The position numbers and the translations under genes are program-made. From Clostridia bacterium DTU022 (GTDB lineage Bacteria > Bacillota > Dethiobacteria > DTU022), in assembly GCA_001512835.1 (NCBI GenBank), contig LFRQ01000015.1, positions 1,176 to 65,175 on the forward strand: a stretch of DNA of 64,000 nucleotides, written 5' to 3'. This document shows, piece after piece, positions 46,600 to 49,108 of this stretch. The notes beneath the pieces are model-generated. The model worked only from the letters and a program-made list of their open reading frames with translations, was not told the origin of the DNA and did not search any database. Each line of letters begins with the position of its first letter. The first letter of the stretch is position 1.

Positions 46600-47208
46600 T
46601 CACCTCCTTAATCCATTGACCAGATAACTGGAGATCAGTTCCGCCACCTCTTCTTTGCCGAAGCCCTTTCCCTCCTGGAACCAGACGTAGACCCAGTTAA
46701 TGCTCCCCAGTATGGCATAGGACAACAGCTTCTCATCCTCGTTGATAAAATAACCCTTATCAATCCCCTCCTTGATCAGTTTTTGAATCAGCCGTTCATA
46801 CTGCTTCCGGCTGGCCACGATCTCCTGCCAGTGCTCGGGGCGGAGATCCCGGCGCAGATCCATGAATACGGCCATAACATCCCGGTTTTCGCAGATGACC
46901 AGGACATGGGATTTCAAAATCTTTTTCAGCCGCTGGTCCGGAGGCAGCTCCCGGTGGTGGACGTCGGAGACTTCCTCCAGGAAGAAATCCATAGCCTGCC
47001 GGAAGATCTGGAAGAGAATCTCCTGCTTGCTGTTGAAGTAATAGTAGATGTGGCCCTTGGTCACACCCATCTGCTCGGCAATCTGGTCGATGGTGGCCGC
47101 GTAGCCCAGCCGAGCAAATACCGTCGCTGCGGCGGTCAAGATCTGCTGCTTGCGCTGGAATTCCACCGAAAGATCCCTGGATTTATGCTTCTCGTATATC
47201 CTGGCCAT
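46600..47208 (-). CDS. TetR/AcrR-family transcriptional regulator
   Basis: The N-terminal HTH LGYAATIDQIAEQMGVTKGHIYYYFNSKQEI is the TetR signature. Start trimmed to MARIYEK (TAGGAGGGAGAAC ribosome binding site). Confidence 0.8.
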   Translation of the reverse strand: MARIYEKHKSRDLSVEFQRKQQILTAAATVFARLGYAATIDQIAEQMGVTKGHIYYYFNSKQEILFQIFRQAMDFFLEEVSDVHHRELPPDQRLKKILKSHVLVICENRDVMAVFMDLRRDLRPEHWQEIVASRKQYERLIQKLIKEGIDKGYFINEDEKLLSYAILGSINWVYVWFQEGKGFGKEEVAELISSYLVNGLRR

Positions 47209-47329
47209 GGTTCTCCCTCCTAAACCCACCGGTACAGGTTGGCCGTAAAATAATACTACTCAGTATAATAATTAATTCTTCCCCCGGGAAAATATTCCTG
47301 CCAATTTACCAGAAAATTTTTTATTTTAA

Positions 47330-48005
47330 AAAATCTTTTGGGGGTCAGGTCTTGAATTGTGAATTTTGGTTTTGGGGGTCAGGTCTTGAATTTCCCCTCC
47401 TTACCTTATACCGGGGTCAGGTCTTGAATTGTGAATTTTGATTTAACCTTATCTTATATTTGTATACTGTTTACATGGGTTTGATCTTGAATCTTGATTT
47501 TTCCCCTCCTTATTTCTTAGAGATCTACCTATTATTAATTAGGACTTCTCAACGGGTCGGGCCTTAAATTGTTAATTTCCACACCTCGTGAGTAAAGAAA
47601 CGCCACGTTCTTGTTCCGCCGGCAAAAGAAATAATTCAAGACCCGGGCTTTAAATCAAGACCCGGACCCAAGAAACCCTCAAAAATTCAAAATTCAAGAC
47701 CTGACCCCATCCTTAAATTTGGAGGAAGGCCTTTCAATTTTCAAACGGCCTCAAAAGGCCGCTTCAGTCCCCGCTAGTTTATTTATTCAGGCCATTCTGC
47801 GGCAACATTGAGCTTGCTGCTGGAAGGAATGCATCTTGCAAGGGGCGTCCTTGTTCCGCCGGCAAAAGAAATAATTCAAGACCCGGGCTTTAAATCAAGA
47901 CCCGGACCCACGAAACCCTCAAAAATTCAAAATTCAAGACCTGACCCCATTCCCGGCGGACCCAAGAAACCCTCAAAAATTCAAAATTCAAGACCTGACC
48001 CCATT
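47330..48005. repeat. AT-rich repeat island: at least 5 direct and 7 inverted copies of a ~25-nt motif GGGGTCAGGTCTTGAATTGTGAATTTTG, plus a ~106-nt segment duplicated at 47605-47710 and 47845-47950
   Basis: Plus-orientation copies at 47339, 47373, 47412 and degenerate copies at 47478 and 47554. Inverted copies (…AATTCAAGACCTGACCCC) at 47628-47708, 47868-47948 and 47958-48004. The two long copies are 240 nt apart and differ at 2-3 positions. Confidence 0.8.
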
Positions 48006-49108
48006 CTGGAGAGGTGGCGGGCGTAGGCCAGGGCGTTGAGGAAGGAGCGGTGCAGGGCGTCTTGGCCGTAGGCTTTCGCCAGGGATACCCGGGCCGACCG
48101 GGAGTTGCACTCGATAAACCAGAGGCGCCGGTCCTTATCCAGGGCCAGGTCGATGCCCAGCTCCCCGCAGGGGCCGTACCGGCTCTCGATCAGGCAATAG
48201 ATCCGCTGCACCAGGCAGACAATCTCTTCCCTCAGCCGCTCCAGGAAGGCCGGTTCGAAATGCAAGGCTGCACCAAAAAAATCTTCAAAGGGGAAGCTCC
48301 GGGCATGGGTGGTAATGGGGGCCTGCTTATGGCCCACGCGCACGGGTATGCCCACCAGCTCCAGCTCCCCCCTGCCGTTGCGCTGCACCTCCGCCCGCAG
48401 GTCCACCGGTCCGCCGTCAAAAGTCATCAGCTCCACGGCCTGCTGGATGATATACTCCCGGTCTTGAAAAAAGTGCCGGACCTCTCTTGCCAGCTGCTCC
48501 CGCCGCACCCGGCCTCGCTTCAGCCCTCCTTGGCAATGGCTAAACTCGTACAGCCGGTCGCTGCTGCGGAGGACCTTGACCACCTGCCGCCCCCTGCTCC
48601 CCAGGCAGGCTTTTAAATATACCGCCCCGTACCGATCAAGCATGCTCTCCAGGAGGGCGCCGTCCCGCCGGCAGCAGACCGTGGCGGGCAGATGCCCCCT
48701 CAGGAAGGGATCGCCTTCCAGGAGCCGGTGCACCTCCCATTTGTTCAAGCCGAAAAAGTAGTTGACCGCCTGGGCCTGCCTGCGGTTAAGGTGGTCCAAC
48801 AGGCACCGGAACGCTTCGGCCCGCTGCGGGGGCGCGTCGTTGCGGAAATAGACCACCCCGGGAAAAGGAAAAGAGCCCCTCTTCCAGGAGCCCTTCTCCC
48901 GGTGGTAATAGGCGCCCCGAATCTGCTGGCGGTCGAAGTCCACGTCGTCCAGGGAAAAAAAATAAAGGAGAGGATCGTCCCCGCTTCCGCCGCCGCATAA
49001 GGCCTGGAAATCCCCCCCGGGCGCCTGCTGCAAAAGGGAGCGCAGGGAGCCCGGGCTAACAAAAACCCCAATAAGCGGTACAGCCAGGCGGCAAGTCCCG
49101 GCGGTCAT
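47981..49108 (-). CDS. YheC/YheD-family ATP-grasp protein (endospore coat-associated)
   Basis: 375 aa with an ATP-grasp C-terminal half (WFIECNSRSAR). AGAGGAGG ribosome binding site. Confidence 0.65.
   Translation of the reverse strand: MTAGTCRLAVPLIGVFVSPGSLRSLLQQAPGGDFQALCGGGSGDDPLLYFFSLDDVDFDRQQIRGAYYHREKGSWKRGSFPFPGVVYFRNDAPPQRAEAFRCLLDHLNRRQAQAVNYFFGLNKWEVHRLLEGDPFLRGHLPATVCCRRDGALLESMLDRYGAVYLKACLGSRGRQVVKVLRSSDRLYEFSHCQGGLKRGRVRREQLAREVRHFFQDREYIIQQAVELMTFDGGPVDLRAEVQRNGRGELELVGIPVRVGHKQAPITTHARSFPFEDFFGAALHFEPAFLERLREEIVCLVQRIYCLIESRYGPCGELGIDLALDKDRRLWFIECNSRSARVSLAKAYGQDALHRSFLNALAYARHLSRMGSGLEF

Follow-up and report, generated by a model that had tools for sequence, protein, structure and literature searches.

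Gene-less TIRtron ends as the probable identity of an AT-rich repeat island between yheC/D and tetR in Clostridia bacterium DTU022

RAYT (tyrosine transposase associated with repetitive extragenic palindromes [REPs])-like genes with long terminal inverted repeats (TIRs) on both sides were named “TIRtrons”, and their enzymes “TIRYTs”, by Di Nocera, De Gregorio and Rocco (2013; BMC Genomics 14:522, PMC3733652), who reported a GGGGWSAS motif common to TIR ends and “moderately abundant” TIR families occurring as singles, dimers and clusters. Of the 26 TIRYTs described, 20 were assigned by Quentin et al. (2018; PMC6006769) to subclass 2.1 of TnpA_REP, in which the C-terminus is DnaA_C/HTH-like. The widespread “Group 1” RAYTs with moderately repeated flanking 16-mers (Bertels et al., 2017) may be the same group; in the literature searched, the TIRYT class as such was found only in PMC3733652 and PMC6006769. 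Here, we analyzed a 64-kb stretch of the Clostridia bacterium DTU022 genome (contig LFRQ01000015.1, positions 1,176 to 65,175; hereafter, the window), in which an AT-rich island of repeats is located between a yheC/D gene and a tetR gene. Very probably, this island is a cluster of gene-less TIRtron TIRs, that is, of the 27-nt, GGGGWSAS-bearing ends of a RAYT-like Y1/HUH TIRYT gene.

The likeness to TIRtrons resides in several features. The island repeat starts with GGGGTCAG, which fits GGGGWSAS; in other genomes, the motif brackets RAYT-like Y1 genes of ~290 aa whose products carry an HTH or DnaA_C-like domain at the C-terminus, the end of the gene is overlapped by the 3′ repeat, and gene-less copies are single, dimeric or grouped. 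On the other hand, neither this host nor the exact 27-mer appears in PMC3733652 or PMC6006769, and a TIRYT gene was not located in ~127 kb of host sequence. Further, the literal repeat sequence was found in no searchable paper or supplement, including those of Di Nocera and co-workers.

The REP/REPIN/BIME systems with RAYT (TnpA_REP) transposases (Nunvar 2010; Bertels and Rainey 2011; Ton-Hoang 2012) are also close, since they share the enzyme superfamily (the REP_Tyr_transpos cut-off is passed), a gene placed between inverted repeats, non-autonomous copies that pair into hairpins (dimers of 46–155 nt), mixed-orientation clusters and a location mostly downstream of genes. However, the island unit is not palindromic (z = 0.4) and carries the tag GGGG instead of GTAG/GTGG, its copy number seems moderate (one cluster in 64 kb), and the repeat is common to many phyla rather than species-specific. 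Classical REPs and REPINs (RAYT groups 2–3), for their part, consist of imperfect palindromes of 20–40 nt, are lineage-specific in sequence and number over 100 per genome. With the IS200/IS605 family (IS608, ISDra2), the island motif shares a Y1 HUH transposase, the lack of target-site duplications and presumed single-stranded substrates; in contrast, IS200/IS605 ends are subterminal hairpins, the left unlike the right, without TIRs, and their transposase has ~130–150 aa and no C-terminal HTH. Finally, miniature inverted-repeat transposable elements (MITEs) derived from DDE insertion sequences are similarly short, AT-rich, non-coding, multi-copy and bounded by TIRs, whereas the island motif shows no target-site duplication and its cognate gene is not of the DDE type. 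As short +/− pairs of the motif in other genomes lack target-site duplications and a single unit is no palindrome, the repeat qualifies neither as a MITE nor as a REP in the classical sense.

Twelve copies of GGGGTCAGGTCTTGAATT(K)TGAATTTT constitute the island, five forward (47341–47570) and then seven inverted (47633–48002), as a preliminary description of this stretch had stated and as a motif search with up to 5 mismatches corroborated. The 18-mer GGGGTCAGGTCTTGAATT is present six times in the window, every time within the island (0.03 occurrences expected from shuffled sequences): at 47341, 47375 and 47413 on the + strand, and at 47691, 47931 and 47985 on the − strand. When up to 5 mismatches were allowed, additional + copies (47476, 47553) and − copies (47633, 47652, 47873, 47892) were detected, while the remaining 63 kb of the window contained no site with up to 4 mismatches to the 18-mer. 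In all six exact copies, GGGGTCAG forms the outer end. The inverted arms measure 27 nt, and complementarity between them is 96%; forward copies are spaced by 34, 38, 63 and 77 nt, and orientations are mixed across the island. In line with the AT-richness noted previously, GC content was 0.34–0.49 in the island vs. about 0.6–0.68 in the flanks. The elements of the island are as follows.

47341..47367, + strand: TIR copy 1, of the left-end type, 27 nt (GGGGTCAGGTCTTGAATTGTGAATTTT), with 30-nt identity to the left TIR of the TIRtron at locus L193.
47375..47393, + strand: TIR copy 2, with an exact 19-nt core that diverges beyond (motif search).
47413..47439, + strand: TIR copy 3, 27 nt, exact (motif search).
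47476..47493, + strand: degenerate TIR copy 4, with 5 mismatches in the 18-nt core (motif search).
47553..47570, + strand: degenerate TIR copy 5, with 4 mismatches (motif search).
47606..47710, − strand: block A, 105 nt, with inverted units at 47633–47650 (5 mismatches), 47652–47669 (4 mismatches) and 47682–47708 (exact, 27 nt).
47711..47845, no strand: spacer of non-repeat sequence separating block A from block B; at ~47745–47758, it contains a short inverted repeat, GGCC...GGCC.
47846..47950, − strand: block B, 105 nt, a 98% copy of block A, with units at 47873–47890, 47892–47909 and 47922–47948.
47957..48007, − strand: third copy, 51 nt, of the distal part of the block, with an exact unit at 47976–48002.

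The duplicated block, previously given as ~106 nt, thus measures 105 nt and recurs with 2 mismatches at a spacing of 240 nt, and the partial third copy that had also been noticed follows with a 54-nt tandem period. Since the 98%-identical blocks include non-repeat sequence, part of the cluster grew by plain tandem duplication. The suggestion of a recombination hotspot holds in a weak sense only: the 240-nt and 54-nt tandem duplications, together with the strain polymorphism at another cluster described below, represent local rearrangement.

The distribution of the motif beyond the window was determined by exact-match scans, employing the 17-mer GGGTCAGGTCTTGAATT on species-representative genomes and the 26-nt variant of the window on metagenomes. 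The 17-mer was detected at at least 119 loci in species-representative genomes, compared to a calculated chance expectation of ~70 for any 17-mer in a collection of that size, and at more than 230 loci with metagenomes included. Among the matches listed were Gammaproteobacteria, Desulfobacterota, Acidobacteriota, Nitrospirota, Methylomirabilota, Omnitrophota, candidate-phyla bacteria and Syntrophomonadaceae, among others. An extra 5′ G was present in 86% of 157 motif instances, and positions +17 to +25 were semi-conserved (NTSACWTTT), which extends the unit to ~27 nt and indicates that the instances constitute a family rather than chance matches. Many of them were +/− pairs whose variable distal parts were still complementary, and dimers and groups of the motif were also observed in other genomes.

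Open reading frames (ORFs) near the motif were clustered across loci and the four largest families were compared; Y1 genes were then found by profile search. The top recurrent family beside the motif was a protein of ~285–300 aa, the sole one of the four that abutted it, while the other three (GGDEF, ABC and SDR) were generic, abundant families. The motif-abutting protein gave a match to Y1_Tnp of Pfam (IS200-like), in many cases together with an HTH at the C-terminus (HTH_23), and scored 85–97 bits with NCBIfam NF047646 (REP-associated tyrosine transposase) against a cut-off of 80. A Y1 transposase-like ORF (280–300 aa at full length) was present in the same stretch at 14 of the 119 genome loci and 15 of the 115 metagenome loci listed; in most of these 29 cases, the motif brackets the gene directly. 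The geometry was consistent, with a + copy 0–110 nt upstream of the gene and a − copy 3–20 nt downstream or across the stop codon, in a unit of ~0.93 kb; both ends were present in L075, L111, L001, L100, L089, L152, L196, L130, L193 and L171. The TIRtron that best matches the window (L193, protein P0057) belongs to another organism and comes from other samples.

At L193, the C-terminus of the protein reads ...NSQFKT*, these residues and the stop being encoded by the right repeat. We observed the same arrangement, with the right repeat specifying the final transposase residues and the stop (...N-S-Q/K-F-K-T-TGA), at L193:1690-1745 and in L130, L152, L171, L143 and L035. Hence, the presumed binding site of the enzyme and its own C-terminus are the same DNA and, as the right repeat is coding sequence for the enzyme end, DNA-site and coding constraints coincide on the 18-mer. 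As far as we found, three points seem to be undescribed, namely how little the 18-mer varies between phyla, the fact that it encodes the final residues of the enzyme, and the GGGGTCA junction duplications reported below.

In an alignment of 10 TIRYTs, the HUH motif (HYH; H60-Y61-H62) and the catalytic tyrosine (RYxxLNPVRA; R118-Y119...N123-P124-V125) were invariant, and a C-terminal tail, GY..E/QI...L..HYST(I/V)SK, was conserved. The family is very large and, with E below 1e-40 as the threshold, counts at least 7,991 proteins; a search of PDB sequences with a TIRYT gave no match at E up to 0.01. Plasmid-borne relatives at E below 1e-30 were limited to one, L240, on a Legionella adelaidensis plasmid (NZ_LR134433.1, 352182-353045), where it is annotated merely as “transposase”. 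This more distant TIRYT (43% identity) lies between copies of a repeat that has diverged correspondingly, AGGGTCAGGCCTTGCCTTTTG, suggesting covariation of enzyme and repeat. Many TIRYT proteins (among P0097–P0176) are encoded on contigs of 0.9–1.3 kb, about one TIRtron length, and two contigs of the window’s species (L123, L124) terminate inside the island; this suggests that TIRtrons or their repeats routinely break metagenome assemblies.

The association with a Y1/HUH gene bears on the TIR/MITE-like nature proposed in the preliminary description. That proposal was right insofar as a transposase-gene family has this unit as its TIR, and as the copies are gene-less at this locus, multi-copy in the host and present in many phyla. 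It was not right as regards a classical MITE, as the enzyme is of the Y1/HUH and not the DDE type and, at 62 +/− pairs of 46–155 nt in other genomes, no target-site duplication was found, the flanking direct repeats being 0 nt (38 pairs), 1 nt (15) or 2 nt (9). Such a lack of target-site duplications fits Y1/HUH chemistry and speaks against a DDE-type MITE. A single MITE, or several nested ones, originating from a DDE insertion sequence and moved by cut-and-paste with target-site duplication would explain the TIRs, the AT-richness, the absence of coding capacity and the multi-copy state, but is highly improbable considering these 62 pairs and the fact that the sole gene family recurrently bracketed by the motif encodes a Y1/HUH transposase.

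The host is an uncultured member of the Bacillota recovered repeatedly from anaerobic-digester metagenomes (metagenome-assembled genome GCA_035409705.1 and others). It holds at least four clusters of the motif, with 12 (window), 4, 10 and 4 units, respectively. The three further clusters (L245/L213, L246/L197 and L247/L135) were assigned to the same genome because of a shared NCBI accession series, a contig of GCA_035409705.1 and tetranucleotide profiles that correlated with that of the window at r = 0.97–0.99, equal to the correlation of the window with itself. They are placed as follows.

L245/L213, 4 units: intergenic region between a PHP-domain gene and lytR, with the first unit overlapping the PHP stop codon.
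Second further cluster, 10 units: flanked by a DUF1015 gene and a CoA-activase gene in divergent orientation.
Third further cluster, 4 units: adjoining the stop codon of an HD-domain gene, in HD/TPR surroundings.

The window cluster is the only one in 64 kb, and ~45 kb of unselected host flanks contained none. Host copies tend to adjoin the 3′ ends of genes, and all units have one orientation in two of the host clusters (L197, L213). Two strains that are 99.5% identical over the PHP–LytR locus differ in the cluster almost solely at the outer repeat edges, namely by a 17-nt indel and by an exchanged spacer that carries a 16-nt duplication of its own (L213:6880-7500 vs. L132:470-1100 and L245:15890-16420), which suggests recent activity. 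Confinement of the motif to this locus, which the preliminary description had named as an argument against mobility, was thus not observed, in view of at least three further host clusters and copies in many phyla.

These clusters also bear on whether the island is a dedicated regulatory region, i.e., an operator field of the adjacent TetR/FadR-like repressor or of a global regulator. The island is indeed located upstream of tetR (46600–47208, − strand), as previously indicated, and motifs in both orientations could bind dimers. However, the three other host loci have unrelated neighbours (PHP/LytR, DUF1015/CoA-activase and HD/TPR), the motif occurs in many phyla with neighbours that are heterogeneous except for TIRYT, and the stretch that separates the island from tetR contains the candidate promoter of this gene. 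The earlier idea of a TetR operator field was therefore not supported, the motif being found at loci without a TetR gene both in the host and in other genomes, and we regard control by any regulator through this island as a very remote prospect.

With regard to secondary structure, a single unit showed no hairpin of its own, since units of 29 and 46 nt folded like shuffled sequences (z = 0.40 and 1.31, respectively). By contrast, the whole island as single-stranded DNA was predicted to form three nested 27-bp stems by +/− pairing (z = −6.4). This strong predicted pairing is compatible with a co-opted RNA or DNA structure, in which hairpins transcribed from yheC/D would either stabilize the mRNA or end it and would shield tetR, a role that has been proposed for REPs. 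The outermost copy extends across the stop codon of yheC/D, the two genes are co-oriented, and host copies adjoin gene 3′ ends in the same way that REPs are mostly found downstream of coding regions (PMC3733652). Nevertheless, the stems would span loops of 240–600 nt, a scan of the island region revealed no intrinsic-terminator-like site, and an Rfam scan of both strands at E up to 10 returned three chance-level matches only (E = 8–9, far under the gathering scores). Such a function is improbable, and it does not exclude the explanation by TIRtron ends, with which it is compatible. The repeat begins like a tmRNA (GGGG..GA..), a resemblance that was dismissed as coincidence after a tRNA/tmRNA search of the island region had been negative.

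Inspection of the repeat edges across loci revealed junction duplications, in which the start of the repeat, together with 8–12 nt of flank, is present in tandem. They were detected at 30 of 355 instances, compared to 3 of 1775 random anchors (L213:7176-7209, L132:816-850, L043, L101, L058, L013 and others), and one of them is a polymorphism between two host strains; none was found at the six exact copies of the window. Because the partial copy stops right after GGGGTCA in 17 of the 30 cases (and after 8–9 nt in 8 more), the duplications suggest that the repeat is broken at a defined place, between A7 and G8, possibly a nick site. “Headless” repeats (GGTCTTGAAT without GGGGTCA) numbered 9 across all loci vs. 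about 3 expected, too few to back the breakpoint alone. Within the island, the four degenerate inverted units (47633–47669 and 47873–47909) are retained from G8 on (GGTCTTGAWTT), with unrelated sequence in place of GGGGTCA; their breakpoint is the same as that of the junction duplications at other loci.

By analogy with IS200/IS605 and REP/RAYT systems, we infer mobilization in trans by a single-strand mechanism, with a putative nick between A7 and G8. A TIRYT encoded elsewhere in the genome would recognize these ends on single-stranded DNA, where a + copy and a − copy may pair into a long hairpin; the enzyme would then nick and rejoin the ends, scattering solo, paired and grouped copies to intergenic DNA and gene 3′ ends. 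Ordinary tandem duplication accounts for part of the cluster growth, with periods of 240 and 54 nt at 98% identity. A stronger proposal, which we consider rather doubtful, is that TIRYT elements are active, horizontally spreading single-strand DNA transposons that nick their own repeat at GGGGTCA|GGTCTTGAATT. According to this proposal, each repeat would carry the enzyme target, so that new copies and short “head” duplications would accumulate beside old ones. If true, the window’s species would be a natural system with ongoing TIRYT activity, given the strain-level differences at its repeat edges.

The layout of the island could alternatively reflect a TIRtron that decayed in place, by deletion of the TIRYT gene between the arms and subsequent local amplification of the ends, rather than independent solo insertions. 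In agreement with this, + copies are all on the left and − copies all on the right, which is the polarity of intact TIRtrons; the + copies match the left end of L193 over 30 nt; the − copies read ...TLKNSKFKT* to the repeat TGA, like TIRYT C-termini (...ILKNSQFKT*); and L148, from another organism, has an identical layout. However, tblastn at E up to 10 found no TIRYT coding trace between the arms, the “C-terminal” similarity derives mostly from the 27-nt repeat itself, and other host clusters are single-orientation (L197, L213). A TIRYT coding remnant in the island was likewise rejected as a candidate, the similarity being limited to the repeat-encoded part. Decay in place is, taken together, an unlikely history for this island.

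Several observations weigh against the interpretation of the island as a cluster of TIRtron ends, or at least against its mobility. Firstly, no TIRYT/Y1 gene was detected in ~127 kb of host sequence (tblastn of the window, profile hidden Markov model search of the host loci and ~60 kb around the three other loci); trans-mobilization is therefore unproven here, and the copies could be relics. Secondly, the island was base-for-base identical across five independent assemblies, so activity at this locus is without support. Thirdly, phylogenetic breadth and copy numbers, obtained from exact-match scans, are lower bounds. Finally, the literature searched contained no biochemical work on any TIRYT.

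The island occupies the 772-nt gap between two co-oriented genes on the − strand, and its surroundings include the following features.

47981..49108, − strand: YheC/D-family ATP-grasp gene, whose conserved domain stops before the repeat-encoded tail (alignment with homologues).
47275..47304, − strand: candidate sigma-70-like promoter of tetR, located outside the repeats in the stretch from the island to the gene (consensus match; shuffled sequences give 1.2 such sites).
46600..47208, − strand: TetR/FadR-like regulator gene, heading an acyl-CoA/beta-keto-acid operon, downstream of the island and not part of the element.

The overlap with the yheC/D stop codon, already recognized in the preliminary description, is such that the outermost inverted copy encodes the last seven codons of YheC/D (MGSGLEF) and the TGA stop. 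In the YheC/D variant P0177 (385 aa), differences are confined to the N-terminus, and the closest YheC/D homologue outside this species has 45% identity. The cluster extends the yheC/D–tetR spacer to 772 nt, substitutes the tail and stop of YheC/D and sits upstream of the candidate tetR promoter; most likely, this local effect is incidental.

Iterons or an origin of a plasmid or phage, or else a CRISPR-like array, could also present AT-rich DNA with repeated ~25-nt units, but the irregular spacing, the mixed orientation and the presence of several clusters per genome argue against them. Moreover, the surroundings consist of chromosomal housekeeping and sporulation genes, and no rep, par or cas gene was found within 10 kb of yheC/D. 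The iteron cluster considered in the preliminary description, lacking a replication gene, was accordingly not supported, and this entire group of explanations is barely credible. Its statement that no transposase or integrase is close by was correct for the called genes up to 10 kb on either side of yheC/D, none of which belongs to such a family; further, tblastn detected no Y1 transposase similarity anywhere in the window.

Selfish repeat DNA, of a kind that is known though obscure, makes up the feature, which is neither an origin of replication nor a region for TetR control. For genome annotation, this means that the spacer upstream of the fatty-acid regulon is unsuited to operator mining and that the YheC/D C-terminus derives from a repeat. 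The field gains a 27-nt end sequence that spans Gammaproteobacteria, candidate-phyla bacteria and Bacillota, a repeat that doubles as the last transposase codons, the absence of target-site duplication and a candidate cleavage position, so that a biochemical test of the TIRYT family is now straightforward to design. The feature itself is still an ordinary repeat cluster; the survey across phyla offers useful leads, as does the candidate nick site, but no surprises.

Two minor observations concern the neighbourhood. A short inverted repeat (ATACT-ACTC-AGTAT, 47253–47266) is located between the start of tetR and its candidate promoter; as a TetR operator, it is more plausible than the island, though short enough to occur by chance. 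On the side of yheC/D away from the island, ~3.4–4.0 kb from the yheC/D start, a MazE/PemK-type toxin-antitoxin pair (L120:5970-6598) is located amid housekeeping genes and is unrelated to the repeats.

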